DNA of 64,000 bases from Candidatus Bathyarchaeia archaeon (GTDB lineage Archaea; Thermoproteota; Bathyarchaeia; Bathyarchaeales; Bathycorpusculaceae): contig JBEKOM010000001.1 in NCBI GenBank assembly GCA_049521795.1, positions 32,001-96,000 of the forward strand. The letters are read 5' to 3'. The translations under genes and the position numbers were made by a program. Shown here piece after piece: positions 3,258 to 64,000 of the stretch (within the stretch, counting starts at the first letter, position 1; every line of letters starts with the position of its first letter). The notes beneath the pieces are model-generated. The model saw nothing but the letters and a program-made list of their open reading frames with translations, had not been told where the DNA came from and did no database searches.

Positions 3258-4491
3258 GAAACTGTTGACTTTTGAAGAGGCAAAAAAGGTCATTCTGGAA
3301 CGATTCAGCCCTAAGCCTTTGGGCGTTGAAGAGATTTCGCTTCTTGAGGCTAGCAGCCGTGTTCTGGCACAAGACGTGACGGCCGGCAGAGACATTCCAC
3401 CATTTGATCGGTCAACAGTCGATGGATACGCTGTCAGGGCTCAAGACACCTTTGGTGCCGAGGAAAACAGACCGATTACGCTGACGGCTCACGGAGCAGT
3501 GCGCGTTGGAGAAACTTCTAAGATAGTTGTCAGAAAGAAAGAAGCAGCAGAAATAGTCACAGGAGCACCTATCCCTGAAGGCGCAGATGCTGTTGTCATG
3601 GTTGAGCAGACTGAAAGAAAGGCTAACCGTATTCGTGTTTTCAGCGCAGTTGCAAGGCGTGAGAACATAATGAAGGCAGGACAGGACATCGGAAAAGGCG
3701 AGACTGTTCTCAAAACTGGCAAACTGCTCAGTTCGAGAGAAGTCGGTGTTCTAGCTGCCTTGGGCATAGCGAATGTCAAGGTTTACGTAGTTCCTCGAGT
3801 GGCAGTTTTTTCGACGGGAGCTGAGGTAACCGAACCAGGCAGAAGCCTGCCCGCTGGGAAGATCTACGACATCAACGCGTACACCTTGAGCGCAGCAGTG
3901 CTCGAAAGCGGAGCGAAGCCCATTTTTCTCGGCGTTTTCCCTGATGACCTCGTCAAACTTCAAAAAGCGCTGAGGCACGCCTTGGCCTCCGCCGACGTTG
4001 TAGTAACGTCTGGCGGTGTCTCCGTAGGTCCAAAGGACGTTATGCCAAAAGCCGTGGCCTCCCTCGGCCAACCTGGCACGATCATATCTGGAATAGCAAT
4101 GAAGCCTGGAAAACCCACGACGATAGGGTTGATCCGTAACAAACCAGTGTTTTCACTTCCCGGACATCCTACGTCTGCTTTGCTTGTTTTCCATCTGCTT
4201 GCCCGCCCGATAATACAGGCAATGGGAGGGAGAAAAGCAGAAGAAGACTCAGAAGTGAAGGCCCTAGCGAATGCAAGGATGTTCGCAGCAAAGGGAAGAA
4301 GAACATTTGTCATGGTAAGTGTGAACCGGAGTGAACTAAACAGGACTGTGGCCGAGCCTATTCTAGCAGGGGATTCTGGAGCGATAACGACCCTCACAAG
4401 AGCAGATGGTTATGTCGAGATACCTGAAAACGTGCAATTCGTGGATGTAGGCGAGGAAGTCACGGTGCGACTTTTTCGAAAAATGCCGTAA
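3250..4491 (+). CDS. moeA: Molybdopterin molybdenumtransferase MoeA (paralog 2)
   Basis: PPFDRSTVDGYAV, TGAPIPEGADAVVMVE, SGGVSVG, KPGKPT, LPGHP; overlaps paralog 1. Confidence 0.93.
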   Translation: MFRKLLTFEEAKKVILERFSPKPLGVEEISLLEASSRVLAQDVTAGRDIPPFDRSTVDGYAVRAQDTFGAEENRPITLTAHGAVRVGETSKIVVRKKEAAEIVTGAPIPEGADAVVMVEQTERKANRIRVFSAVARRENIMKAGQDIGKGETVLKTGKLLSSREVGVLAALGIANVKVYVVPRVAVFSTGAEVTEPGRSLPAGKIYDINAYTLSAAVLESGAKPIFLGVFPDDLVKLQKALRHALASADVVVTSGGVSVGPKDVMPKAVASLGQPGTIISGIAMKPGKPTTIGLIRNKPVFSLPGHPTSALLVFHLLARPIIQAMGGRKAEEDSEVKALANARMFAAKGRRTFVMVSVNRSELNRTVAEPILAGDSGAITTLTRADGYVEIPENVQFVDVGEEVTVRLFRKMP

Positions 4492-4554
4492 GCGACAAAA
4501 AGAATCTGGGGAAACGAAAGTTAACGCGATAGTATAAAATGAGAAAAGATGTCC

Positions 4555-4911
4555 TTATTCTTCTAGAACTTTTCTCTTGTTTGCGGCGTATGCTGTGAAG
4601 ACCCATGTTAGAATGAGGTAGAAAATCATTCCGACGCCGAGAAAATAATTGGCTGTAAAAACACTGAAAATGACATAGGACGCGTAGGTTGTGCTAGCGA
4701 AGAACAAGATTATGATAAACCAGAATGACCAGGCTCTCTTCCTAAACATGCCATAGGCAGCGATCAGGCTTAGTATGCCGAGGATCCCAACGTGCGGCGG
4801 AAAGCCACTCAATGGCAAAAGAGCAACGAATGCTATTCCAACGATTGCGTAGAAAACAGATGTTGCAAACAATCCCCAGCTCTCAATCCTCAGCCTCGAC
4901 CCGAGTGACAT
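4555..4911 (-). CDS. Small four-TM membrane protein
   Basis: 118 aa with four hydrophobic helices. Confidence 0.7.
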   Translation of the reverse strand: MSLGSRLRIESWGLFATSVFYAIVGIAFVALLPLSGFPPHVGILGILSLIAAYGMFRKRAWSFWFIIILFFASTTYASYVIFSVFTANYFLGVGMIFYLILTWVFTAYAANKRKVLEE

Positions 4912-4953
4912 TTTCCATACGCCTTTAACCCTAATGCATTGACAGTAAGATTA

Positions 4954-4992
4954 ATAAATCTAATGTTCCACTGTCCGCTTAAACTCACACTT
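4954..4992 (+). repeat. Left direct repeat of island (candidate attL or duplicated promoter)
   Basis: 32/39 identical to 12455-12493 by manual alignment. Confidence 0.7.
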
Positions 4993-5116
4993 TTCGATAC
5001 TTGTCTTTCTACATAAGAGCCTATACAATCACTGGAGTATCCATTGTAGTTCCTTCAGAAAAGAACATGTTAAGTCCACTAAAGGCTTCGTTTCATTTGC
5101 TTGATGAAGTTTTCCT

Positions 5117-5344
5117 TTATGCAAAACTCGTACGTATTCCTCTTTCAGCTTGACTGAAGCCTTTTGAACGTTTTTCAAACCATGGTTCATACCATGTTTT
5201 AGATACCCACTTATGTTTTTCACACGCAAGGATTTTTGTTTTAACATTAGTCTTATGTTCTGGGTTATGAAATGGACAGTTTTTATTTTCGGTGATTTTC
5301 AATTCACCTTTAAGCAATGCCTCTTTTATCCATCCTTTAGTCAT
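5117..5344 (-). CDS. Small hypothetical protein
   Basis: Start overlaps the stop of the HNH gene (ATGA coupling); contains Cys/His. Confidence 0.5.
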   Translation of the reverse strand: MTKGWIKEALLKGELKITENKNCPFHNPEHKTNVKTKILACEKHKWVSKTWYEPWFEKRSKGFSQAERGIRTSFA

Positions 5345-5754
5345 GTCTTCACCATTTTCTTTTCACTCATTTTTGAACCTCTCATTTGCTCTCTTTGTTG
5401 CCAAATCTCCCTTATTACATTACCCACCCTTTTGAATTCCTCATAGGTTAAAAAATCTGTCTTAGCCATATTACAGAGGGCGCAAGCCAAAACCGAATTC
5501 TCCAACGTATAACCTTGCTCGTTATCCTTACGGTCTATTTCCAACCTTCGTCCTCTCCTTCCAGAACCATAAAACTTCTTTTCCCAGATGCTAGTAAATT
5601 CCTTTTCCTCTATTCCGCAATAATGACACCTTGTTCCGTCCCTCTCGTAAAGTTGTTTTCGTAGTTTCTCTTTCTCTTTGACACCTCTTGGTGCTACATC
5701 TTTGAACTTTCTTGCGTGCTCTATAATCTTAATCCCCCTCTTCTGACTTATCAT
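5341..5754 (-). CDS. HNH endonuclease family protein
   Basis: RDGTRCHYCG ... LEIDRKDN..GY..EN.VLACALCNMAK, the HNH/Zn signature. Confidence 0.8.
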   Translation of the reverse strand: MISQKRGIKIIEHARKFKDVAPRGVKEKEKLRKQLYERDGTRCHYCGIEEKEFTSIWEKKFYGSGRRGRRLEIDRKDNEQGYTLENSVLACALCNMAKTDFLTYEEFKRVGNVIREIWQQREQMRGSKMSEKKMVKT

Positions 5755-5804
5755 ACTTCTTCCTCTTTGTCATTTTTGAACATCTAGTTTGTCCTTTGTA
5801 GTAT

Positions 5805-5823
5805 GCAGATTTAAGATTTCTGT
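5805..5823 (-). promoter_or_regulatory. Island motif A copy (BRE/TATA-like, ACAGAAATCTTAAATCTGC)
   Basis: Recurs at 7120-7148, 7314-7346, 7720-7752, 8439-8451 and 9881-9896, mostly just upstream of minus-strand ORFs. Confidence 0.65.
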
Positions 5824-5928
5824 CTTGCCTATTCTTCACATTTCACAATAAGAAAGAACAAGATTTGCGATTCATAAAATCTAATTCCTTCTCCTTGACT
5901 AATCAAATACAAAGAAAGGTAACCATCT

Positions 5929-6399
5929 ATGGGCAATTGTGCAAAATGCGGAAAGCAACTGAGCTGGATAGGTCAAAATGCAAGTTGTCAATTCATGCCA
6001 CGTTTTGTAAAGCAACATCCAGAGTACAAAGGTAAGAAATTCTGTAGAGAATGCATGGTTAAGGAGACTGCCGAAAGACAATTTAGAGAAGCACAAGACG
6101 GAAAAACCGCATTCATACAAGACGACGCCCAAACAGTTTTGCAGGATAGACAAAAAAGATTGACAATCTACACAGATGTAGCGGCAAAATTCGGCTATAC
6201 CTTTAAGCAAATCGAAGATGCCGCTTATAATAGAAGTGCTTATTCTATACCAGTTCAAATTCATCCTGCGACAATGATTTTCGAGAAAGCCATAGCCACT
6301 AATAAGGAAACCAATTTCCTCAATTGTCAATACTGCAAAACTCGCTATGATACAAACCAATACTTCAAATGTCCTCAATGCGGTTCGCCAGCAGCTTAG
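5929..6399 (+). CDS. Multi zinc-ribbon protein
   Basis: CAKCG, FCREC, CQYC and CPQCG pairs. Confidence 0.7.
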   Translation: MGNCAKCGKQLSWIGQNASCQFMPRFVKQHPEYKGKKFCRECMVKETAERQFREAQDGKTAFIQDDAQTVLQDRQKRLTIYTDVAAKFGYTFKQIEDAAYNRSAYSIPVQIHPATMIFEKAIATNKETNFLNCQYCKTRYDTNQYFKCPQCGSPAA

Positions 6400-6413
6400 A
6401 GAAGGCAAAAGGG

Positions 6414-6647
6414 ATGATGAGAATGGTGTGGGTAAAAGGTCACGCAAGAATAAGCGGAAAGTGTAACCATTGCAGGAAGGAAGTCAATAAAGGTGATACT
6501 GCTTTTGTTGAAATTCATGGCATATTTCCAAGGCCTTCAACAACTACAGCGTTATGCGAGGACTGCTTTAATCAATTGCATCCCAACGAAAAAACCGTTT
6601 CTGAAACGGGTTTGGCACTAAGAAGATTCACGTTTAGAACAAGCTAG
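6414..6647 (+). CDS. Small zinc-finger protein
   Basis: CNHC...LCEDCF; start at ATG 6414. Confidence 0.55.
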   Translation: MMRMVWVKGHARISGKCNHCRKEVNKGDTAFVEIHGIFPRPSTTTALCEDCFNQLHPNEKTVSETGLALRRFTFRTS

Positions 6648-6739
6648 AAGATTCATCAGACCAGATAGAACTACCAAATACACTTTCCCAAGAACTGGAA
6701 GAGATTAGTAAACTCTTGAAGGTGTGAAAACTCGAGAAG

Positions 6740-7060
6740 ATGAATGAAAAAATGAAAGACGAAACGAAGTTGGATATTGCTTTACTCTTAATTGTTCTTG
6801 CGACTCTGTTTCTTGTACCTCTGGCAGCCACTTGCATACTATATTATTCGTCAATCTTTAGACCGTCAACATTCACGGCAATCTATATTTGCACCTTCAT
6901 ATTTTGGTTCATTGCCTTTTTCGCTATTGTTGGATGGTATGACGAACAAGAACAGAATCGACAGATATTCGGAAGAATCAGAAAAGACATTGAAGAACGT
7001 AGAGAGCTAAGAGAGAGAATGCTGGAAAAACTACGCAAAGAACAAGATGAAGAAACTTAA
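6740..7060 (+). CDS. Two-TM protein with coiled-coil tail
   Basis: Two hydrophobic helices followed by a charged helical C-terminus. Confidence 0.6.
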   Translation: MNEKMKDETKLDIALLLIVLATLFLVPLAATCILYYSSIFRPSTFTAIYICTFIFWFIAFFAIVGWYDEQEQNRQIFGRIRKDIEERRELRERMLEKLRKEQDEET

Positions 7061-53793: not shown

Positions 53794-54381
53794 TTATCCC
53801 TGCTCTGCTTTCCTGATCGCAAGCTCGACTGGAAACACTCGCAATTTCTTGCCGTTCACCGGAATTATGCGTTCAGCAGGGTATCCACGCCTTTCACGCT
53901 TCAGAAAAGCAAGCTTGACGTCCAAGCCGCCTCCGTACCCACCCAGTGTCAAGTCCGCCCTTACAACTCGATGGCACGGGCAGACCGGTGCAAAAGGGTT
54001 TGAAGCCATGACCTGCCCAACAGCTCTCGGCCCTCCTCCGACGGTTTTGGCAACTTCACCGTACGTGGTCACGTAGCCCGGCGGTACCTTGCAAACGGTT
54101 TCGATTACTTTCTTAGTGTACTTTGGCAGATGCTCCTCGGCCAGGGAGAACGTTTGAGACACGTCTTTCCCATCGTAAATCTCCTTCAACGCTTCGATTA
54201 CAGAATGCGCAAACTCTGTTCTCTCTGGATTTTCCGCAGAACCATGAAAGCGGACACCCTCCCTCAATTCTCGTAGAGCATTGTTCTGAGTGAAGGCAAA
54301 AGTTGTCGCGTAGACAGATTCTTCTTCAAACGCGACTCCAAACCAGACATCTCCCACTTTCTCAGTGTAAACACTTATCAT
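53794..54381 (-). CDS. ogt: O6-methylguanine-DNA methyltransferase
   Basis: TYGEVA, RAVG, PCHRVV, GGY.GG. Confidence 0.9.
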   Translation of the reverse strand: MISVYTEKVGDVWFGVAFEEESVYATTFAFTQNNALRELREGVRFHGSAENPERTEFAHSVIEALKEIYDGKDVSQTFSLAEEHLPKYTKKVIETVCKVPPGYVTTYGEVAKTVGGGPRAVGQVMASNPFAPVCPCHRVVRADLTLGGYGGGLDVKLAFLKRERRGYPAERIIPVNGKKLRVFPVELAIRKAEQG

Positions 54382-54492
54382 GCTTGCTTCCTCTCGTAGA
54401 ACTATCGCCGCATCTAGTCTTATTTCTTGCTCCTCTAATTCAATCTTGCACGCACACGCTTCATTGAGAAAACCGCAAACACACTTGCCGAA

Positions 54493-55035
54493 GTGCGCGC
54501 GTTGAACGAAAAAGACTTGAACAACCATGAGAACCTGCGATGGGCATGGAATGTGATCGACAACGAAAGTCGATTTTGGCTTGCCTCTCAGATAACGGAG
54601 AAAAGGGAAATTGCAGACGCAAGACAGGTTCTGGCTCAAGCCTCAGGCCTTTCAAAAACGAGACCGATGGCAACAGTGACAGACGGACTGAGAGCCTATC
54701 AAGAGGCGATACCTAAGGAGATTTTCCCTTTGAAGGGGCCGAGGACTCAGCATGTTAATATTCCGAATATTAGAGATCGTTCCAACAACAACATGGTTGA
54801 AAGATTGCACGGAACGATTAGGCAGAGAAACAAGGTTATGCGAGGACTCGATGATCAAGAGACAGCACAGACAATGATGGATGGACTCAGAATTTACTAC
54901 AATTTCATAAGGCCGCACACTGCCCTAAACGGAAAAACGCCCGCACAAAAAGCAAATATTGAAACTGACAAGGCAGAATGGATGTCTCTAATTAAGAAGT
55001 CAAGTCAACATCAGAGGTTTGAGACAAGTTCTTAA
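54493..55035 (+). pseudogene. C-terminal half of an IS6-like DDE transposase
   Basis: WNVID..SRFWLA, VTDGLRAY, NNMVERLHG, YNFIRPH.ALNGKTPA; first Asp, HTH and Zn fingers missing. Confidence 0.85.
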
Positions 55036-55060
55036 GGCGTGGTAGGACTCTTATTCAAAC

Positions 55061-55915
55061 ATGGCAGGAATTGATGTTAATGTTTTGCTGAATACAATAC
55101 TTGGTGGAATCATAACGATCTCGGGAAGTCTTGCAGTTGCTGGATTGTACATAAGAAACCAAAATAAAAATCAAAGAAAAAGACGTCTGCAGGAGTTGAT
55201 TCAACAAACGTACTTCGAGCAGGGTATTCTCCCAGTCCTAGCAGCATTGTCAGAATATGGAACGAATACCGTATTTGCTTTAGCTGACACGAGAATATGG
55301 CTGGTAAGATGCTTCAGACTTGGAGAAGGTACTGAAGTTCTAAAAACACGATTGGAAGAGATTGCAAAACGTCCCGTGATAGTGGATTTAACTAGCCACA
55401 ATTTCACTAATGTTTTGAAGTGGCTTCCTACCCTTCAAAAATTCGGAATGCCATTGTATAGTTCAATCAAGAGAACTCTTCAATTCTACAGTAGCCTTGT
55501 AAGTGATGCAACTTCGTTTAGCTTATTGGAGAAAACCATTAAAAACTCTTCAGTTGAGGAGGTTGCTCGAAGTATGGGTGCAGTTGCCCAAATAATTGAT
55601 TTTACGCTAATGTATCTTGAAAAAAGATTTACAAACCTCAGAGACTATTTCTGGCAGCAGGAATTGGAGAATTACCACGATTTCTCGCAAGTGTTTTCAG
55701 ACACAAAATATCGTAACTTTCTATCAGTTATGGATCAGTATATGAAGCGGTTGACCCAATTGATGAATGCCATGCAATCAGAGAAGCCAGAGGACCGACC
55801 AAGAGAAACTCTTTCATTCAGCAAATGGCTAGGGGATAACTTGGACAATAACCCCCTTGAAAATAACGCCAAAACAGAAGAAGTACAGAAAATTGAAACA
55901 AAAAAGCCTAGTTAG
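55061..55915 (+). CDS. Cargo protein of element A, N-terminal TM plus helical domain
   Basis: 284-aa ORF; no family recognised. Confidence 0.7.
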   Translation: MAGIDVNVLLNTILGGIITISGSLAVAGLYIRNQNKNQRKRRLQELIQQTYFEQGILPVLAALSEYGTNTVFALADTRIWLVRCFRLGEGTEVLKTRLEEIAKRPVIVDLTSHNFTNVLKWLPTLQKFGMPLYSSIKRTLQFYSSLVSDATSFSLLEKTIKNSSVEEVARSMGAVAQIIDFTLMYLEKRFTNLRDYFWQQELENYHDFSQVFSDTKYRNFLSVMDQYMKRLTQLMNAMQSEKPEDRPRETLSFSKWLGDNLDNNPLENNAKTEEVQKIETKKPS

Positions 55916-55977
55916 ATTTGCTTAACTTGGCAATCTTGCCTTTTGATAGAAACATCAATCATTAGAAAAATTCTATC

Positions 55978-56136
55978 TCAAGCAAAAAGTCTCCATAATA
56001 ATATTATGGAGCAAACAATACAGATTATTCCAGAGCTTATAGCGACTTTGATAAGCTCTTTGTCTGGTTCTCTTTGCCACCATTCTTTTATTTTGAGAAT
56101 AAACAAATCAATTCTAACCTTTGACGAATGAATCAC
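55978..56136 (-). CDS. Possible 52-aa membrane peptide
   Basis: GTG start after AGAGG; C-terminal hydrophobic helix. Confidence 0.3.
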   Translation of the reverse strand: MIHSSKVRIDLFILKIKEWWQREPDKELIKVAISSGIICIVCSIILLWRLFA

Positions 56137-56296
56137 CCTCTCATGCTCCAGTTTTTGAGAGAAAAGTTCATGCCTCGGAGAACCTGAATCATTGTTCTAT
56201 GTGGGTTTCCTGACAGATGGTTCATTCGACGAAGACTATATAGAACGATGGAAAAGCCCCGACAGTTAACAAACTTCTTTAAGCCCCGAAGAGTTA

Positions 56297-56319
56297 ACAG
56301 AACCCTTTATCAGGTTCTG
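56297..56319. repeat. A/B junction ACAGAACC-CTTTATCA-GGTTCTG
   Basis: Exact 23-bp direct repeat with 60452-60474; palindromic arms around an asymmetric 8-bp core. Confidence 0.95.
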
Positions 56320-56378
56320 TAAACTTATCGGTTGGTGGTTCTGTGATAATGTAACCTTGCCTGTCATGGCATTAATGG

Positions 56379-56876
56379 CTACTGAGACTCTGTAATGTGA
56401 ATATCGTTTTGGATGTTGATCGCGACATTTAATCTAAGAGTCAGCGTTTTGAACCCAAGCTTTTGAGCGATCTGGAAAGAAGCTTTTTGATATTTCTTCG
56501 GTTCTGATTGATTGACCTTGACCTCAATAAAGAAGAGGTCACCATCTTTCTTTACGACAAAATCTGGAGCGATGCCGACACGACTATAATGACTTGCTAG
56601 CCTCGTTTCAGCCTCTTCCCTTGCCAACTTCCTTATAGCCTCAATGTATGCTTCCATATCTTCAAGTTTTCCACCAAAAAAGTCGCTAAAGAACTTGTCA
56701 AATTTTTCTGACTTTTTGCGATGCATATAGAAATCGAGTTTGAACATTATATCTCGGAACAAATGGACTTCATAGCCGTTTTGCTTCAAGTATTCTCTCG
56801 CTACTTTTTCCCCAATAGAACCGAACTCATTACTGACATTGACTTTCCATGTGCCGTCATTTGCACCTTTTGTCAT
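56379..56876 (-). CDS. PD-(D/E)XK nuclease (YraN/Hjc/VRR-NUC-like)
   Basis: GSIGEKVAREYL...APDFVV...FFIEVK. Confidence 0.8.
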   Translation of the reverse strand: MTKGANDGTWKVNVSNEFGSIGEKVAREYLKQNGYEVHLFRDIMFKLDFYMHRKKSEKFDKFFSDFFGGKLEDMEAYIEAIRKLAREEAETRLASHYSRVGIAPDFVVKKDGDLFFIEVKVNQSEPKKYQKASFQIAQKLGFKTLTLRLNVAINIQNDIHITESQ

Positions 56877-57010
56877 GCCAACTACCTCAATAACAGTCTC
56901 CCAGTTGGGAGTATTAATCTGATCTGAAACTCGATACTGTAAACTTACCTGTCATGGGTTCTTGGGTTGAAATTTCTGGCATCGATTTTATTGGTACAAT
57001 GAGTGCGCGC

Positions 57011-57259
57011 TCATGATGTTATGCGAAAATAAGAATGATCGTATTCTGGAACGAAATCTGGTTTTCCCTTTTTGAGTTCATTCCAGACTTCTTTGAATGT
57101 TTCTTCTTTAGATTTTCCACTTTTTGCGATATGGCTCTTTCTTACTTCAGAATACACTAGCCGAAAGTGATTTTGAAGAGAACCCTTTACTCCTCTAGGA
57201 ATACGTGCCAAATCCTCTTTTACTTGTTGATTGAGAGTTTCTAGGCTTACCTTGACCAT
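57011..57259 (-). CDS. Small hypothetical protein
   Basis: 82-aa ORF with own TATA-like upstream region. Confidence 0.55.
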   Translation of the reverse strand: MVKVSLETLNQQVKEDLARIPRGVKGSLQNHFRLVYSEVRKSHIAKSGKSKEETFKEVWNELKKGKPDFVPEYDHSYFRITS

Positions 57260-57373
57260 GAGACGACATCTCCACTATAACAATCTTCATTTTCTTGATT
57301 AATACATATTTCCAACATTTTTTTGTTCAAATGAGCCCTAAGCACAAATCCGATTTTTCTTCTGTGAACCATT

Positions 57374-57583
57374 TTGAGTTATCGAAAACGACATGACGCT
57401 AAGAAATGGCTTGTCGTAAGAAGGAAAGGACACAGTATTATCCGAGTTGTCGCTGGAGAACGATATAGAACTAAAAAAAGAGCTCTGAAAGAGGCTAGGG
57501 ATTATAACAAAGCGTACAAGGGTTCCGATGTCAAGTTCATGGTCAGAAAAGAAGGGTGGAGAAGAAAGCGGTGGTGGTCATAA
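57374..57583 (+). CDS. Small very basic protein
   Basis: 69 aa, K/R-rich. Confidence 0.5.
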   Translation: MSYRKRHDAKKWLVVRRKGHSIIRVVAGERYRTKKRALKEARDYNKAYKGSDVKFMVRKEGWRRKRWWS

Positions 57584-57623
57584 TCAGGGTTCGACCCTTG
57601 TAAACTGGCATAAGATCACTTCT

Positions 57624-57689
57624 TAAAACGGGCCCTAACGCAACTTGGGAAAAAAGGGCCCTGATACAGCCTTCCTAAAACGGGCCCTA
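57624..57689 (+). repeat. Three 14-bp repeats with 26-bp period
   Basis: TAAAACGGGCCCTA at 57624 and 57676; AAAAAAGGGCCCTG at 57650. Confidence 0.75.
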
Positions 57690-57721
57690 TCTGATGCCTA
57701 ATAGAAAAATCCTAGCGGGCT

Positions 57722-57919
57722 TTGATAGGGTTGAAGCAAATGTTAAATTCTGAAGAGCATGAAACAAAAAATAAGGCTGAGGAAATGCCACCAAAGAGAA
57801 CAAGTCAGAAGAAACCCAGAAAAAGAAGAGCTAGAAAAAAATCTAGCAAAGGCGGTTTCTGGGATGAAGTTGAAAAATTCCTTGGAATTAAGCAGACAAG
57901 GAAGAAGAGAGCAAGATGA
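57722..57919 (+). CDS. Small basic protein coupled to PIN gene (antitoxin position)
   Basis: Stop overlaps the PIN start (ATGA); start uncertain. Confidence 0.45.
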   Translation: MIGLKQMLNSEEHETKNKAEEMPPKRTSQKKPRKRRARKKSSKGGFWDEVEKFLGIKQTRKKRAR

Positions 57920-58464
57920 GAGTTTACTTGGATTCATGTATTCTCTTGGACTTTCTCCTAGATCGTAATGATGCATCGAGTCGTTTTATTGAGCATTTTG
58001 CGAAAGAACATGGGATAACTCTTATTCTGAGTAAATGGACACTAATCGAAACGCTCGGAGGCATGAAAGACAGATTTATGCTTCTGAAACTGATTTTTGA
58101 AGAGAACTTGGCTCCTGAAGAGGTACTGAGAAGGAGAAGAGAAATCGAGCCTAAGAAACATGAATTAAAAGGGCTACTCGATCAACTAAAGAGATTTGTC
58201 GAATATGATGTCAAAGGCATTGCTGAAGTTTTCGATGAACCAAACGCGACTTGGCATACGATTTTAGAGAGCTTGGAGACGCTCAAGGATACGGGACTTG
58301 ATGCTGGAGACGCTCTGCATCTCCATAATGCATTGAAAGCAAAATGCGATGTTTTCCTAACGCGAGATAGCCCTGCGACTAGAAGGGTAAAGAAATCCAA
58401 GCTAATGAAGATTCAAACTCCAGAAAATCTTATGAAAGACAGGAAAACTCACTCTTCAAATTAG
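57916..58464 (+). CDS. PIN-domain (VapC-like) ribonuclease
   Basis: VYLDSCIL, TLIE, DAGDALHL, FLTRD acidic tetrad. Confidence 0.85.
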   Translation: MRVYLDSCILLDFLLDRNDASSRFIEHFAKEHGITLILSKWTLIETLGGMKDRFMLLKLIFEENLAPEEVLRRRREIEPKKHELKGLLDQLKRFVEYDVKGIAEVFDEPNATWHTILESLETLKDTGLDAGDALHLHNALKAKCDVFLTRDSPATRRVKKSKLMKIQTPENLMKDRKTHSSN

Positions 58465-59606
58465 CATTTTTTGCTCGCATTTTGTATTAGAGTTAGCCAC
58501 TTGTTCTTTCCTAGTTTCAGGTCTATGTTGGCTTGTTGTGCTGGAGTTTTTCCGTTTAGGGCTTGATGTGGTCTTATGACGTTGTAGTATGTTCTGTACG
58601 TTTCTGTCATTGTTTTTGCTGTGCGTTCTGTCTTTAAACCTCTCATAACCTTGTCTCGTTCTCTGATCGTGCCATGCAATCTTTCTATGATATTGTTGTT
58701 GGCTCTGCTTCTTATTCCAGCGTTTGCCATATGTTTTGTTCTCGGATTCTTCAGAGTCCAAAACTCCTTCTTGAAAGCTTCAGCGTACGAGCGTAAGCCA
58801 TCCGTGATTATGACCTCTGGATTATGTCCAACCTTTTCCTTAGCTTTTGCGAAAACTTGTCTTGCATCTGAAGCTTCCCTGCCTTCAGAAACATGAGACG
58901 CAAGTAAGTATCTGGTCGAATTGTCCATACAATTCCATAACCAGAGCCATTTTCCACCACAGCGGATTTTCATTTCATCCGTGTTCCAGACTTTTGATAG
59001 CTCTGGTTCAAGCTGGTCAACGTAGGCGTTGATGATTCGTCCATACTTCTGCAACCACTTGAAAACTCCCATCTGACTAATGTCTAAACCATAAAACTGC
59101 TTGATATGGTCAACGATCTTTCTGAGGCTTATGCCCTTGAAATAGAGGTCTAAAGCTAACGAAACAATTTTGGGATCGAACCGCATCCTAGCGAACCCTT
59201 CATCAACAACGAAGCTTTGACCGCAATCCTTGCACTTGAACCTCGGAGTTTTCACGTTTCTGTTCTTGCGGTAACCCCATTTGATAATGTTGACTGACCC
59301 ACAGAATTTGCAAGTGGAAGCCTCTGAAAATTCTCGGTAAAGCTGGAAAACATCAGCATTGTCAATTTTCTCTTTAAGGCTTATCCAGAAGCGAACAGCA
59401 AAAATGTGTTTGCAAACAACCTTTCGGTATTCGTGATCTGGGCAAGTGCAATCCCATTCTTTTCCGTTAGTTACAACATATTGACCGTTCCCAGATTGAC
59501 TTTTCACCTTGAATATGTGAGATTCTTTTTGCTCTATCTGCTCGTTTTGGGCTATTATTGCGAAGCCTCGAACCATTCTTCCGTTTGTCAGGTTTTGAGT
59601 TGTCAT
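58461..59606 (-). CDS. IS6-like DDE transposase with N-terminal SWIM finger and zinc ribbon
   Basis: SWIM CTCPD...CKH; CKFCGS/CKDCG ribbon; HTH; D (TDE), D (ITDG), E (NNIIER). Confidence 0.92.
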   Translation of the reverse strand: MTTQNLTNGRMVRGFAIIAQNEQIEQKESHIFKVKSQSGNGQYVVTNGKEWDCTCPDHEYRKVVCKHIFAVRFWISLKEKIDNADVFQLYREFSEASTCKFCGSVNIIKWGYRKNRNVKTPRFKCKDCGQSFVVDEGFARMRFDPKIVSLALDLYFKGISLRKIVDHIKQFYGLDISQMGVFKWLQKYGRIINAYVDQLEPELSKVWNTDEMKIRCGGKWLWLWNCMDNSTRYLLASHVSEGREASDARQVFAKAKEKVGHNPEVIITDGLRSYAEAFKKEFWTLKNPRTKHMANAGIRSRANNNIIERLHGTIRERDKVMRGLKTERTAKTMTETYRTYYNVIRPHQALNGKTPAQQANIDLKLGKNKWLTLIQNASKKC

Positions 59607-59692
59607 GTTGTTACACCTATTGGTATCTAATGGTATAATAGCAAATCTTAAATATAAAGGTTGCTAATGGTATCTATAGGTAGTGATTCAGA

Positions 59693-59830
59693 ATGCCTAT
59701 GAAGAAAATAATGGTATCAATGACGCAAGAAATGGTAGATGCCCTAGAAAAAGAGAGAAAAAAACGAAAACTAGCTAGTGTCCCTGAGGTGGTCAGACAA
59801 ATATTGGGAGAATACGTTTCTAGTGACTGA
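59693..59830 (+). CDS. Ribbon-helix-helix (CopG-like) regulator divergent from the transposase (not in ORF track)
   Basis: MPMKKIMVSMTQEMVDALEKERKKRKLASVPEVVRQILGEYVSSD. Confidence 0.75.
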   Translation: MPMKKIMVSMTQEMVDALEKERKKRKLASVPEVVRQILGEYVSSD

Positions 59831-60369
59831 AGTAAATGCTGGTCTTTCATGTCTAAGATCAAGCAAGAGATGCCACACTTTTCTATCAGAGAAGTTTCTG
59901 CCAACGAATCGGAAAAGCAATTCGTGCTTGCGACCCTTCTCTAGTGAGAGTGTCGGCATCCCAAACACTTGTTCATCCTGAACAAGCTGGAAAAGGGCAT
60001 GTTTGTCTTTTGTTATTGTACACAATCTTACTGAGATTGTTTGATCAGGATCAAGGTCAAAAGGCGCAAGTTTTTCTGGAAAATTAAGGTCTAAAGTGCC
60101 ATACTCGCGCAAAAGCTTAGGCGGTTTCGGTCTCATGGGCAATTTTTGTTTTACTTTAAATTTGACCCTAACACCAATAGCTGTTCGTTTTCCAGCATTG
60201 TGAAGGTAGAAAGAGCAATCATTTGTTCCTACATGGCAATCTTCGATTCTAAGTTTCGGCTTGTTGATAAAAAACGGTAAAGCTCTATAACCGCTGAAAT
60301 TGCCGAAAACGTGAACAGGACTATCAGAATCGCATCCGTCCAACTCGTTATAATCGGAATCGCTGACAT
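59771..60369 (-). pseudogene. Membrane-anchored cargo gene with apparent frameshift in a T6 run
   Basis: ATG 60369 gives a TM helix (MSAIPIITSW...ELYRF) that joins the long frame FINKPKLRIED only after a shift at 60269-60274. Confidence 0.5.
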
Positions 60370-60451
60370 GAGAAAACGGTTTATGGCTATTGCAATATAA
60401 GGTTATTCTCTGAAGGTCAATTCCCAAAAAAAAGAACCAACCGATAAGTTT

Positions 60452-60474
60452 ACAGAACCCTTTATCAGGTTCTG
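60452..60474. repeat. B/C junction ACAGAACC-CTTTATCA-GGTTCTG
   Basis: Identical to 56297-56319. Confidence 0.95.
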
Positions 60475-60802
60475 GTAACTTCATGGGCGACAGAGAACCC
60501 TGTTAAATTTCGGGTGATGATTTCCCTTTTCGAGAAAAGGGTGTTAACAGTCGGGTGATAGACCCTTCAAGTGGGAAGGTGAGGGAAAGGGCAATAGGGA
60601 AGGAAAAATCTTTGCCTCTTCCCTCTCCTTGTACTGTTTCTTCTCCCTTCTCCTTCCCTCAAAACTTAGTTGAATAATCAAATATGGCTTATGGAGGATA
60701 GTTCTAGAGGAATCTTCTATTCAAATTCATCAAAAACAATTCTGTTTGATTAAGGGACCTGTACTAGAAAGAAAAAGATAATTGGTTTGTGGGGATGTAG
60801 GC

Positions 60803-61129
60803 TTACTTCTTTTTCATTGCTGCGATTTTAGCTTTTAGAACTGCTCTTATGGTTTCCTTGGCTTTCTCGTATGATATTATCTCATGCACGTCAGAGACAA
60901 CGTAAGGAGAGAATATGAGTACACGCTTGTAGGAATCTGCAGTTTCCCCTTTGCCGATTACGTATCCAGAGTATCCATCGTGGAAAGCCCCCCACTCTTC
61001 AATCTCTCCCTTCTTAATCATTCCATCCATGCTTGCAAACATCATTTCGTAGAGTTCTAAGAGCTTAGAAGGGTCTGTAGGCCATGGTGCTGACGGATTG
61101 AAGTGCCAAAAGTTTAGAAATCTAGCCAT
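60803..61129 (-). CDS. DUF3303-like small alpha/beta protein
   Basis: MARFL..W...G.IEEWG.F.DG.SGY pattern. Confidence 0.55.
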   Translation of the reverse strand: MARFLNFWHFNPSAPWPTDPSKLLELYEMMFASMDGMIKKGEIEEWGAFHDGYSGYVIGKGETADSYKRVLIFSPYVVSDVHEIISYEKAKETIRAVLKAKIAAMKKK

Positions 61130-61222
61130 TCAAGCCACCTCCCGTTATAGTTGTGTTTTGGGATGTTTGTTATAACTTCTATTTAAAATCATGGAAGAAT
61201 GGCAGAAAATGAGGAAAACAAC

Positions 61223-62344
61223 CTAGGGTTTGTTCTTAGACGCGTTCTCTATGATGGTTTTCCATTTGTCTTGTCCTTGAACCGTTATGCCGCATGCTTC
61301 CGCTGGAGTCTTTCCACCTAAGCTTTCATGGGGTCTGACATAGTTGTGGAAGAGTTGATAACCCGAGAGTATTGCTGAATCTTCTTTCTTTAAGCCTCTG
61401 AACACTTTCTCACGATCTCGGATTTCACCGTTCATGCGTTCCATCTTATTGTTCTCATGTTTTCCACGGAAGCTGATTTGTCGAATATGTTCAGTCCTAG
61501 GGCCCTTGAGAGTCCAGTATTCTTTCTTGTAAGCTTCATGATAAGACCTCAACCCGTCAGTGATTATGGTTTTCGGCTGTTTCCCCATAAGCTCCTTGCT
61601 CATTCGAAACAGCCTTCTCGCATCGTGCGAGACTTTTGTTTCAGCTACCTCTTGAGCGATCCAGAAACGAGTCTCATCATCCATCATGGCAAAGAGGTAT
61701 TTCATATCGCCCTTAATCTTGACATAAAGCTCATCTGCTCTCCATGTATCGCTAACGTTTGGTTTTATTTTTTCAAGGTAATCATTCATCAGCTTCACAT
61801 ATTTTCGTATCCACTTCAAAACTGAAACGTGGCTTACTGAAACGCCCTGTAGCTTGAGGAACTTCTGAACGTTTCTGAGTGATTCTCCAGTGAAGTATAG
61901 CTGCATTGCCGAGGTTATGATTTGAGGCGAGGCTTTCATTCCCTCAAAGCCCACGTTGACCGAGAACCGTTTTCCACATGATTTGCATAGGTATCGCTGA
62001 ATATCGTATTTCTTGTTATGTCGTACTGCGTCTTTGACTATTTGCTCTGAACCACAATAGATGCATTTTGAAGTGTTCAAAGGAGCGATGACAACGTTCT
62101 TCTTGACTTGTTCCTTGATTCTTATGCTGGTCTCAACCGCAAAAATGTGTTTGCACTTTACCTGTCGAAACCTGTTATCTGGACATTCACAAGTCCATTC
62201 ATTGTCAACTTTGGAAACAGCGTATTCGCCGTTTCCTGATTGCGAAAGAACGGTATAGAAATTTTCTTCTACTTGTTTGACTTGGCTTTCTTTATGGGCT
62301 ATTTCTAAGCCTCTTTCTTCTCTCAAATTTTCAGTCACGTTCAT
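61223..62344 (-). CDS. IS6-like DDE transposase with N-terminal SWIM finger and zinc ribbon
   Basis: CECPD...CKH; CIYCGS/CKSCG; WRADE, ITDG, NNKMER; HNYVRPH.SLGGKTPA. Confidence 0.92.
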   Translation of the reverse strand: MNVTENLREERGLEIAHKESQVKQVEENFYTVLSQSGNGEYAVSKVDNEWTCECPDNRFRQVKCKHIFAVETSIRIKEQVKKNVVIAPLNTSKCIYCGSEQIVKDAVRHNKKYDIQRYLCKSCGKRFSVNVGFEGMKASPQIITSAMQLYFTGESLRNVQKFLKLQGVSVSHVSVLKWIRKYVKLMNDYLEKIKPNVSDTWRADELYVKIKGDMKYLFAMMDDETRFWIAQEVAETKVSHDARRLFRMSKELMGKQPKTIITDGLRSYHEAYKKEYWTLKGPRTEHIRQISFRGKHENNKMERMNGEIRDREKVFRGLKKEDSAILSGYQLFHNYVRPHESLGGKTPAEACGITVQGQDKWKTIIENASKNKP

Positions 62345-62456
62345 GGTTACATTCACCGATAGATGTATCTATGCATGGCTACTAATAAATGTGTCGGTAG
62401 CTATATAGATAAAGTTATAAATAAAGCCACCTATACGTTTATCGGAAGATGTTTCG

Positions 62457-62705
62457 ATGAAATCAAAAGACAAATTAGGCGAAAAGTTAATAACAGTGCT
62501 TGGTGAGGCCAGCGAACCGCTGGAGACGAAGGAGATAGAGGAGAAGGTGCCAGCGGAAACGAGATCAAAGATTTTCAATCGATTGAAAGACCTGAGAGGC
62601 GAGGGTCCCATTAAAGGTAAAATGGTGGGTTCTGGCAAAGGAACGTGGGTTTGGTGGGACAAGAATGCTTTTGCAAGACCAAACAGAACGGAGAGTAAAA
62701 AATGA
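62457..62705 (+). CDS. Small winged-helix DNA-binding protein divergent from the transposase
   Basis: EPLETKEI...TRSKIFNRL.DL..EG.I.G wHTH pattern. Confidence 0.7.
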   Translation: MKSKDKLGEKLITVLGEASEPLETKEIEEKVPAETRSKIFNRLKDLRGEGPIKGKMVGSGKGTWVWWDKNAFARPNRTESKK

Positions 62706-64000
62706 GTCTGAGCGAACAATTACTGCAGGTTGTTCCTCAGAAAATAGGCAAGTATTTGTACTACCGTCTTGGCGAAACAACGATTAATCAACTTGTGAAT
62801 TTCGGTCTCATACCGAAAATTGATTATGGTGCATTGATAGCTAAAAAACCAGACGGCTTAATTGTCCATCATAAGGAAGTCAAAGGGATAGTAGAAGCGA
62901 AAAGTCCTGATGAGCTTAACACTACCGAGAAAGAGAATATTGCCATCTCACAGGAAAAGGATGTTGCAAAGAAACTGTGCAAGTTGCTGATAATCACTGA
63001 CAATAGTTCAAAGACTCTTTGGATTAACCCTTTAAATGGGGGAAGAATAAAAGAAAAGAATGGCTCTGAAGTAAGAGCAGTATTCGACGCTAAGTTCACA
63101 AAGAACGTTAATGAGATTGAACGTCTAATTGAGGAAATAGACCTTTCAATCAACGAAACAAACTCAACACTTCGCGAAGAGAAGATCATAGACCCTTCTG
63201 ATCTCGCTCGCCAGATGTGGCAAACTATCTGGGTAGCAACTGGAAAATCTCCAATAAAATGCCTATACAATGTCGTAGAACTCCTCATTTTCAAGTTCCT
63301 GAGCGATCTAAAGGTGCTGGAAGATGAGTATGCTTTCAACCACGTTTACGAAATCTCAAAGACAGACCCAGAAGAAGCTCTGACATTCTACGCACGAAAT
63401 TCAAGAGTGAAGATATTAGAACTTTTTCCAGAGGGAAAAGACAAGACAACTCTGATCAACGGAACAATTTTCGTAAATGAAAGTGGCAAGGCCAATCTAT
63501 CTCAAGCTGTCTTATTTCACCATTCTTTAAAACACCTCTATGAGTACGAATACAATTTCGGCACTTTCATCAAGATAGATAAGAGCTTCAAAACCAAATT
63601 ATACGAGACCTTTCTCAAACAAGAAGTTGAGGCACTAGGACAATATTTTACGACCAGAAAAATCGTTCAATCAATGATAAGGCTATCGAAACTGGACGAG
63701 GAAGAATTTGATTTTAAGGGCAAAAGAATTTGTGACCCGTTTTGCGGAGTCGGTGGCTTCCTACTCGAAATCTTGAATTTGAATGATCGAATGAAACAGT
63801 GTTATACTCCAGATGAAAATGGCGTTATTGACCTTCCTTTCACCATACATGGATTCGACAAGGGATTCGAGAAAGATGATGAAAGAACGATCATATTGGC
63901 TAAGGCAAACATGCTCATCTACCTCACTGACATCATTTTCAGAAATCCTAACGCAACGAAGGAGTTTGCCAGAGTTTTTAATGAAACCTTCACATTGTTC
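62702..64000 (+). CDS. Restriction endonuclease-N6 adenine methyltransferase fusion (Type IIG/IIB-like), 3' end outside the window
   Basis: Open frame from ATG 62702: KPDGL...VEAK (PD-(D/E)XK), LGQYFT, ICDPFCGVGGFL (motif I). Confidence 0.88.
   Translation, partial: MSLSEQLLQVVPQKIGKYLYYRLGETTINQLVNFGLIPKIDYGALIAKKPDGLIVHHKEVKGIVEAKSPDELNTTEKENIAISQEKDVAKKLCKLLIITDNSSKTLWINPLNGGRIKEKNGSEVRAVFDAKFTKNVNEIERLIEEIDLSINETNSTLREEKIIDPSDLARQMWQTIWVATGKSPIKCLYNVVELLIFKFLSDLKVLEDEYAFNHVYEISKTDPEEALTFYARNSRVKILELFPEGKDKTTLINGTIFVNESGKANLSQAVLFHHSLKHLYEYEYNFGTFIKIDKSFKTKLYETFLKQEVEALGQYFTTRKIVQSMIRLSKLDEEEFDFKGKRICDPFCGVGGFLLEILNLNDRMKQCYTPDENGVIDLPFTIHGFDKGFEKDDERTIILAKANMLIYLTDIIFRNPNATKEFARVFNETFTLF

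Follow-up and report, generated by a model that had tools for sequence, protein, structure and literature searches.

IS6-like cargo transposons lie end to end on a shared 8-bp duplication upstream of a Bathyarchaeia proteasome gene

Background

How do transposons with different transposases come to lie end to end, parted only by copies of the same 8 bp? The question is raised by a 64,000-nucleotide stretch, here called the window (G000:C1:32001-96000), of the 2.44-Mb assembly GCA_049521795.1 (G000) of a Candidatus Bathyarchaeia archaeon, contig JBEKOM010000001.1 (C1). The interval between the genes for 6-O-methylguanine DNA methyltransferase (ogt) and the proteasome beta subunit (proteasome-beta) holds three distinct IS6-like transposons, A, B and C. 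We describe this stack, its counterparts in sister species, and similar stacks in other genomes and in metagenomes. Together they suggest that insertion is probably directed to the 8 bp flanking the end of an element that is already resident.

The three-element stack

The 8-mer CTTTATCA is present three times, between A and B (56305-56312), between B and C (60460-60467), and closing C at its right. B is complete (56313-60459, 4147 bp), with inverted ends GGTTCTGTAAACTTATCGGTTGGT at 56313-56336 and 60436-60459 that match at 24 of 24 positions and flanking 8-mers that match at 8 of 8. The junction CAGAACC-CTTTATCA-GGTTCTG lies at 56298-56319 and at 60453-60474. A first-pass annotation, made from the letters of the window, had described two identical junctions flanking a complete B with perfect 24-bp ends, and this proved exact, with identity over 22 nt. 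No other copy of the junction exists in the whole assembly, nor does CTTTATCA adjoin an element end anywhere in it except at the three stack positions. In a shuffle test allowing two mismatches, at least two matches arose in 5 of 100 shuffles; it is the context, and not this test, that excludes a chance origin of the junctions.

The outline of the elements in that annotation stands for B; A, however, is only a left-truncated remnant (54493-56304, + strand) with the right end ...GAGTTAACAGAACC, and C is complete only past the window. The left end of C, GGTTCTGGTAACTTCATGGGCGA, beginning GGTTCTGGTAAC, opens the 3.5 kb that lie inside the window (60468-64000). The whole element measures 7161 bp (C1:92468-99628, equal to window 60468-67628) and thus reaches 3.6 kb beyond the window end. 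Its right end, TCGCCTATGAAGTTACCAGAACC, is followed by CTTTATCA and then TTAAG. It had been suggested that C's far end (...CAGAACC) would again be followed by the 8-mer, and this was found at C1:99628. To the right of this third copy comes TTAAGTTTAATAG, and 49 bp separate it from the start codon of proteasome-beta. The annotation was also right that the three transposases differ and that A's gene points the opposite way: A's lies on the + strand and those of B and C on the - strand, and pairwise identities range from 36 to 54% (A's fragment 54% to TnpB, the transposase of B, and 36% to TnpC, that of C; TnpB to TnpC 42%).

Sequence from other sources supports the layout. A 6087-nt contig from run X1, possibly the source sample, spans both junctions with 0 differences, and contigs from two further studies (runs X3 and X4) also bridge the A|B junction. 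The public runs containing stack DNA are labelled peat metagenome.

On the left, the host flank with ogt (53794-54381, - strand; Pfam PF01035, E 6e-27) is collinear with two sister genomes, G001 and G002, at 90-92% nucleotide identity up to window 54491-54493, and host homology to both ends at 54493, the start of A. A host spacer of about 330 bp, present in G001 (L033:6789-7114) and G002 (L036:5231-5553), is missing from G000, as is the left part of A, and no copy of the spacer lies elsewhere in G000. The spacer is also absent from 58 of 60 other genomes of the family, sampled at one genome per genus, the two matches covering only about 40 nt. As a candidate structured RNA that might serve as target it was rejected, there being no Rfam match at E 0.01 or better in the G001 and G002 spacers.

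The same site in sister species

We located the proteasome flank in nine of 11 genomes of the genus, G000 included. At 100% identity in this segment, G000 itself carries A (the remnant), B and C. In G001 (93%), a genome in a single contig, the site reads CTTTATCA-A'-CTTTATCA-B'-CTTTATCA, with A' of 1074 bp and B' of 4259 bp. In G002 (94%) a remnant X is followed by CTTTATCA-Y-CTTTATCA, Y being 6570 bp long. G010 (92%) shows a right end of C type, the same as that of C, and then GTTTATCA. In four more distant species (G006, G008, G003 and G005, 75-79%) the site is empty, and the upstream sequence of G004 (79%) differs and could not be scored. The empty site of G006, for example, reads ...GAGAAGTCTCCGTCT-CTTTGACA-TTAAGTTTAATAGG, the core also written ..GTCTCCGTCT-CTTTGACA-TTAAGTTTAATAGG. 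An empty site with a single 8-mer had been proposed as a check, and the four more distant congeneric species supply it in the form of the related 8-mer CTTTGACA.

B' has the same ends as B and a transposase 94% identical to that of B, but it is inverted relative to B and carries different cargo; the two share a stretch of only 1948 bp at 86.7% nucleotide identity, versus 90-94% for the host flanks. The transposase gene of Y is 83% identical in DNA to that of A and is likewise inverted. On account of the inverted B', the lower identity between B and B' than between the flanks, the differing cargo, and the inverted Y, we conclude that separate events have filled and refilled the site.

Two smaller features of these loci were seen. 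The C-like element of G010 is left-truncated like A, and deletions beside the stack appear to be recurrent. In A' of G001 a second, nearly identical left end lies 339 bp inward (L033:7123-7470), preceded by TGTTATCA, which matches CTTTATCA at 6 of 8 positions; this may be a one-ended remnant or the product of an adjacent deletion.

Solo relatives and their duplications

Relatives of TnpB are found in 21 of 61 related genomes, G000 counted. Regions around TnpB relatives were taken in 20 cases, and the end pattern gave no pair in 11 of the 22 loci examined. Seven solo elements with clear ends have seven different 8-bp duplications, six of them perfect: CGCAGCTG, CTGAAAAC, GAAAATGG, CTTTTGAA, GTTCTACT, TTATGCTC and, shifted by one base, GAAAACTG. 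No end-like sequence was seen abutting these seven. One of them lies in G000 itself: element D (C1:584502-588352, 3851 bp) has GGTTCTG ends, a perfect duplication of CGCAGCTG, and a transposase 63% identical to TnpC. In addition, a C-type end takes part in a stack at a different 8-mer, CGCTTCAA. Neighbouring elements in the stacks are separated only by the duplication they share, while no one target is conserved at all loci. The first-pass annotation had offered two alternatives, repeated insertion at one fixed site and insertion precisely beside the end of a resident element, and a fixed CTTTATCA target is contradicted by the seven differing solo 8-mers and by the C-type end at CGCTTCAA.

Stacks in other genomes and in metagenomes

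We scanned one genome per prokaryotic species for two ends separated by 8 bp, with degenerate end extensions, and obtained 31 loci. Seventeen were rejected as unrelated, being bacterial A-run/T-run sequences or perfect hairpins lacking a transposase. Twelve are archaeal, from Bathyarchaeia, Nitrososphaerota, Methanoregula/Methanoregulaceae and Methanothrix, and ten of these have a transposase homologue within the up to 8 kb examined. The remaining two are a locus in a Dehalococcoidia genome (L072) and a short contig resembling the Methanoregula locus. Among the 14 non-hairpin loci a far end could be reached in nine, and none was in reach in four; in eight of the nine (L064, L073, L076, L082, L084, L085, L088 and L091) the junction 8-mer is repeated exactly at the far end. 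Each locus has its own 8-mer. The Dehalococcoidia locus is a two-element stack (4505-6939) with GGCCAGCA, GGCCAGAA and GGCCAGCA, the 8-mer agreeing at 7 of 8 positions on both sides, and because of it end-to-end stacking is not confined to archaea. The check suggested earlier, a search for CAGAACC-N8-GGTTCTG near homologous transposases in other genomes, showed that stacks recur, with locus-specific 8-mers. Two further cases come from related Bathyarchaeia. G002 has a second junction elsewhere in its genome, and L039, from another genus of the same family, is a stack with CTAACTTC, CTAACTTC and CTAACTTT that the scan pattern missed because one of its ends reads GGCACAG.

A metagenome scan with a tighter pattern gave at least 120 loci. 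Among the matches listed, 64 loci have a transposase match, the 106 usable junctions contain 95 distinct 8-mers, and abutting ends are mostly identical at 14-17 of 24 positions, so that neighbours are mostly different elements; far ends, located by end similarity alone and without use of the 8-mer, repeat the junction 8-mer exactly in 22 of 27 elements. L182 reads host-GCCGCGAA-E1-GCCGCGAA-E2-GCCGCGAA-E3-GCCGCGAA-host, a complete three-element stack with four copies of its 8-mer. L181 has three elements with CGAAATCT. In a further three-element stack, L185:226-5320, the middle 8-mer is reverse-complemented (TGTTTTGT, ACAAAACA, TGTTTTGT), as if the 8 bp had been flipped.

Twelve of the 120 metagenome loci listed were set aside as unrelated. 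They contain a conserved hairpin, CAGAACC-GTGACGGC-GGTTCTG, with a GTGACGGC/GCCGTCAC spacer and no transposase match (L102, L115, L117, L130, L139, L144, L150, L158, L165, L203, L204 and L214). The hairpin arms are identical at 18-19 of 24 positions, and one contig is labelled human gut. In viral contigs the junction pattern had 0 matches; two IMG/VR contigs encode TnpB relatives (53% and 44% identity), and no GGTTCTG-type end pairs were found in them.

Spacing between abutting ends

In the collection scans the gap was set to 8 bp. Left free between 0 and 24 bp in 401 Bathyarchaeia genomes, the pattern gave 17 junctions in 13 genomes, of which eight have a gap of 8 bp and four a gap of 6 bp, with one each at 7, 11, 12, 17 and 23 bp; a control with the reversed pattern gave two matches. 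When the two junctions of G000 are left out, the 8-bp gap accounts for six of 15; under a uniform distribution of gaps the binomial P for this is 1.5e-5, a value that is indicative only, since kinship among the genomes is ignored. The 6-bp junctions are G256:C4:104-131, G256:C7:377-404, G449:C38:14959-14986 and G449:C77:2812-2839. In two of them the arms are perfect palindromes and the position is close to a contig end. The 6-bp class may belong to another subgroup or represent another kind of joint.

Proposed insertion beside a resident end

We consider it likely that incoming elements are steered to the 8 bp adjoining the end of one already in place. On this reading the elements are DDE transposons of the IS6 lineage, some autonomous and others non-autonomous derivatives; they have GGTTCTG-tipped inverted ends, make 8-bp duplications and carry cargo. 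A first copy would land at an ordinary, non-specific 8-mer, and later copies, usually of other elements, would be directed to the 8 bp directly flanking the resident end. One strand transfer would then occur where the resident end meets its flank, at the very bond that a transposase cleaves there, and the other 8 bp further out. Repair would copy the same 8-mer again, giving S-E1-S-E2-S and so onward. In the mechanism that we propose, the resident end is captured as target by the incoming transpososome or by transposase already bound to it. Such a capture would correspond to the first step proposed for targeted cointegration by IS26; where the elements lack identity, the second end would attack 8 bp away and an ordinary insertion with duplication would be completed. 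The outcome would be a row of cargo genes that can be lengthened further, in a place harmless to host genes. Of the two alternatives in the first-pass annotation, it is insertion precisely beside a resident end that gains support, because C ends with CTTTATCA, the empty site was found, and homologues elsewhere stack with their own locus-specific 8-mers.

Several observations weigh against this reading. Only 13 of the 401 Bathyarchaeia genomes have any junction at gaps of 0-24 bp, and the four 6-bp junctions are not explained by docking at ends. Among the sampled relatives, seven solo loci stand against four stacked loci that represent only two independent sites. Five of the 27 metagenome far ends, among the matches listed, lack the junction 8-mer, one of them having its reverse complement. 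The collection scans, with gap and GGTTCTG tip both fixed, drew on related genomes that are not independent and on short loci. Elements that share only about seven terminal bases are assumed to recognise one another, whereas targeted integration by IS26 requires identical ends and transposases in the available text of PMC7986276.

A stronger form of the idea is that the elements mark their own ends, perhaps by means of p69, a small protein described below, so that any relative docks and end-docking is an encoded strategy. Copies without a transposase keep p69. We regard this form as doubtful. If it were true, archaea would have a means of gathering cargo, defence genes for instance, that is open-ended and integron-like but needs no site-specific recombinase. 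On the main reading, too, the resident end may be recognised by p69, by the newcomer's transposase or by that of the resident. Bathyarchaeota have been reported to lack detectable CRISPR-Cas, according to the accessible part of PMC12669027.

Alternative explanations

The repeated use of one site could also reflect a sequence-specific hot spot, with the elements recognising CTTTATCA itself or the DNA preceding the proteasome gene, and each insertion choosing its target independently, in the manner of casposons and Tn7. Four related species are occupied at exactly this site by differing elements in differing orientations, the empty sites of the outgroup retain the similar 8-mer CTTTGACA, and tandem casposons with a shared duplication have been explained in this way in the available text of PMC4779613. 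However, the occupied species form one close group (92-94%), for which a single ancestral insertion followed by end-directed additions fits equally well, and in G000 CTTTATCA stands beside an element end in this stack only. The 8-mers at the seven solo loci, the C-type end stacked at CGCTTCAA, and the near absence of repeated 8-mers among the listed metagenome junctions (95 distinct in 106) argue further against a recognised sequence, and we judge the hot spot very improbable. A cassette-like recombination, in which circles with an end-8 bp-end joint re-enter through a resident joint as integron cassettes do, would account for the CAGAACC-8mer-GGTTCTG form that all joints within a stack share, and the inverted middle 8-mer of L185 suggests DNA transactions at a palindromic joint. 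Against it, a newcomer cannot bring the local 8-mer with it, so that at least the first entry must be a duplication-making insertion beside an end, and the 8-mers vary between loci even for related ends. DDE transposases are the only recombinase-type genes matched among the scanned open reading frames (ORFs) of A, B and C, and no integrase family was matched in that set, some small ORFs lying outside the scan. Neither an A-8mer-C joint nor a B circle joint was found on L001:1-14500 in the contigs of four peat-metagenome runs, which speaks neither for nor against the idea because contigs drop rare forms; the joints and loose ends seen on L001 in these runs belong to related ends or to the p69 region of other organisms. 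We judge cassette exchange improbable.

Insertion might instead be random, selection retaining only harmless landings such as those beside an existing element. The site is indeed intergenic, just upstream of the AT-rich stretch TTAAGTTTAATAG that precedes the proteasome gene, and this stretch, which by our own reading is probably the promoter of that gene, has been left intact. But selection cannot explain reuse of the same 8 bp when nearby positions or positions within cargo would be equally harmless, nor gaps of exactly 8 bp at eight of 17 free-gap junctions, nor the 8-mer repeated at 22 of 27 far ends among the matches listed; we think it extremely unlikely. A misassembly at repeated ends might also be supposed: the repeats are short, and outside G000 some junctions (G256) sit close to contig ends. 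The shared repeat is only 22 nt and its flanks are unique, however, and the same architecture is found in single-contig G001, in many independent assemblies, and in the A|B-bridging contigs of other studies, which leaves the probability of an artefact negligible.

Relation to known systems

With the targeted conservative cointegration of IS26/IS6 elements (Harmer and Hall; modelled in Varani et al. 2021, PMC7986276, available text) the stacks have in common the transposase lineage, the GG...G7 tips, the 8-bp duplications and the resident end as preferred target. In the IS26 model outlined there, the donor end is cleaved and then attacks the terminal bond of a resident insertion sequence (IS), and identity between the IS copies allows branch migration without duplication. 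That reaction, as described in the same text, differs in its need for identical ends and transposases, in making neither a new duplication nor abutting ends, and in producing arrays that share IS copies. The junctions that we observe, by contrast, keep an extra 8-mer, and the abutting ends mostly differ (14-17 of 24 identical).

Tandem casposons and Tn7 at attTn7, as treated in the accessible text of Krupovic et al. 2016 (PMC4779613) and work cited therein, likewise consist of stacked cargo transposons that keep the duplication and form an island. Their target is sequence-specific and their machinery is Cas1 or TnsABCD in that account, whereas in the present stacks almost every locus has its own 8-mer and a DDE transposase of IS6 type does the work. 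The comparison with casposons and Tn7 drawn in the first-pass annotation therefore stands for the architecture and fails for the choice of target, which varies by locus. In Drosophila, the P element, hobo and R1 form double insertions, and tandem dimers are known for some bacterial IS; their head-to-tail junctions also keep exactly one length of duplication (8 nt for P), and all involve copies of one element at its own target motif in the available part of McGurk and Barbash (bioRxiv 10.1101/158386). Here, the stacked elements are mostly different, have no common motif, and reach three or more. In IS30 and IS3/IS911 the IS end serves as a target of the transposase; these are other families with other junction spacers. 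To our knowledge, they have not been described as building arrays of distinct cargo elements. Insertion of IS3 and IS30 targeted to inverted repeats is cited in PMC7986276, in the text accessible.

We found no description of heterologous end-to-end stacking of IS6-like elements in the literature searched, subscription journals, supplements and ISfinder/TnPedia being outside its scope. Judged from the sequences, the stacking is a variant of double insertion combined with targeting of IS ends, general across several archaeal lineages and present in one bacterial genome. It would provide widespread natural evidence that transposases of IS6 type can target a resident end, even that of a different element. 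The mechanism of IS26's clinically important targeted reaction has only been modelled, and the archaeal stacks could represent the outcome predicted when homology is lacking and would supply many natural substrates for testing that model. Gene islands would also have a simple route of growth if unrelated cargo transposons dock repeatedly where they do no harm, with cargo that here includes a methyltransferase and a PIN-domain protein, and the IS6 lineage would be extended from sub-kilobase single-gene elements to cargo transposons of 3-7 kb with a second conserved gene.

The transposases and their family

TnpB (381 aa; 58461-59606, - strand) consists of a SWIM-like zinc finger, a zinc ribbon of IS1/IS1595 type and a DDE domain of IS6 type, and TnpC (377 aa; 61223-62356, - strand) has the same domain layout, so that both have two additional zinc domains N-terminal to the IS6 core. 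Both exceed the cut-off of 125 bits of the NCBIfam IS6 equivalog NF033587 (TnpB 138 bits, TnpC 129.3 bits) and match Pfam DDE_Tnp_IS240 (E 5e-21 and 6e-18, respectively). Pfam SWIM is matched in TnpB (E 1.6e-4) and also in TnpC. The translation of TnpB contains ..TDEMK.., ..ITDGLRSY.. and ..NNIIERLHGTIRER.., which we read as the putative catalytic DDE+R motifs. A sequence search found no solved structural relative of TnpB. In A, only the C-terminal half of an IS6-like transposase remains (54493-55035, + strand; Pfam DDE_Tnp_IS240, E 1.5e-15), corresponding to TnpB residues ~195-379 by tblastn.

The ends agree with the IS6 family, which is characterised by a GG start and a G at position 7 (PMC6807381, available text): GGTTCTG is found in A, B, C, D and their relatives. 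Perfect 8-bp repeats surround B, D and five more solo relatives; in one other, L049, the repeat is off by one base. In size and content the elements depart from the family. B (4147 bp), C (7161 bp) and D (3851 bp) each have at least four extra ORFs, whereas IS6 elements measure about 0.7-0.9 kb, and up to about 1.76-1.8 kb, with ISDsp3 the sole passenger-carrying member named in the accessible text of PMC7986276. The statement in the first-pass annotation that typical IS6 members are short and without cargo agrees with this 2021 review, as far as that text goes. Harmer and Hall (PMC6807381, available part) argue that archaeal and long zinc-finger members are only distant relatives of IS26. N-terminal zinc-finger extensions are also found in ISDsp3 of Dehalococcoides and in the long zinc-finger IS6 clades h/i or VII/VIII; by the accessible descriptions (PMC7986276, PMC6807381) these measure 1.2-1.8 kb with at most one passenger, and our elements differ in size (3-7 kb) and in content, each with a number of cargo genes and, as a conserved accessory gene, p69. 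ISDsp3, according to the same sources, also comes from Dehalococcoides, which may be compared with the Dehalococcoidia stack at L072.

A second gene, p69, is shared by the elements. It encodes a basic protein of 69 aa in B (57374-57583, + strand), and the copy in C (L001:11947-12153, - strand) is 80% identical; further copies lie at L002:4854-5045 and L135:1423-1626. By tblastn, 17 loci match p69, among them D, B' and an element of 908 bp that lacks a transposase; 14 sequences could be aligned. In B, C and D, p69 and the transposase gene occupy opposite parts of the element. We found no Pfam match for it; its best score in a protein atlas was 0.83, to unnamed clusters, and its AlphaFold model (pLDDT 73.5, strand-strand-helix-strand) has no match in the PDB at E 0.001 or better. 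From this distribution p69 appears to be a second near-core gene of these transposons, unlike the IS6 elements described as single-gene.

In runs X3 and X4, contig depth over the p69 region is about 160 and about 1700, compared with 2-6 elsewhere. The regions concerned are L001:11617-12584, the p69 region of C, and L001:2905-3872 and 4357-4840, and joints in these runs connect the p69 region to an oppositely oriented B-type end. These observations suggest that a small related element is very abundant in the communities sampled.

Other genes of the elements

The remnant A contains, besides its transposase fragment, a 284-aa ORF (55061-55915, + strand) without a family match. B begins with a cargo ORF of 165 aa (56379-56876, - strand) that weakly resembles PD-(D/E)xK/Cas4 nucleases, its matches being sub-threshold only (Pfam UPF0102, E 0.003; PADLOC Cas4, E 7e-4). 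A 65-aa ORF (57722-57919) without a family match precedes the gene for a PIN-domain protein, a toxin-like nuclease (57916-58464, + strand; Pfam PIN_3 and PIN, E ~1e-6). Divergent from tnpB is a gene for a 45-aa ribbon-helix-helix protein (59693-59830, + strand; Pfam RHH_1, E 1.2e-5). The last ORF of B, of 237 aa (59771-60484, - strand), has no match in Pfam, NCBIfam or PADLOC, and a homologue adjoins the transposase in B' of G001. As listed, its ATG lies within the left end of C, and the frame reaches B by way of the 8-mer; translation probably starts within B itself. Frames that cross a junction in this manner illustrate that stacking may create or lengthen reading frames.

In C, an 82-aa ORF divergent from tnpC (62457-62705, + strand) is possibly a winged-helix protein (sub-threshold Pfam WH_Rok, E 0.006). 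Next, from 62702 to the window end at 64000 (+ strand), comes the first part of a gene whose 890-aa product combines an N6-adenine DNA methyltransferase with a specificity (target-recognition) region in one chain; the gene ends past the window at L001:11374. This cargo protein matches Pfam N6_Mtase (E 4.5e-24) and Eco57I (E 6e-8) as well as the PADLOC type I methyltransferase (E 6e-29) and type I specificity subunit (E 7e-19).

Subterminal repeats were noted by eye. GTTAAC-N5-GGGGC is present twice in the right end of A, and GTTAA-N5-CGGGTGA in both ends of C (regions at window 56240-56304 and 60468-60580, L001:13530-13628 and L033:7123-7190). These motifs could serve as a series of binding sites for the transposase, an arrangement that would be uncommon in IS6.

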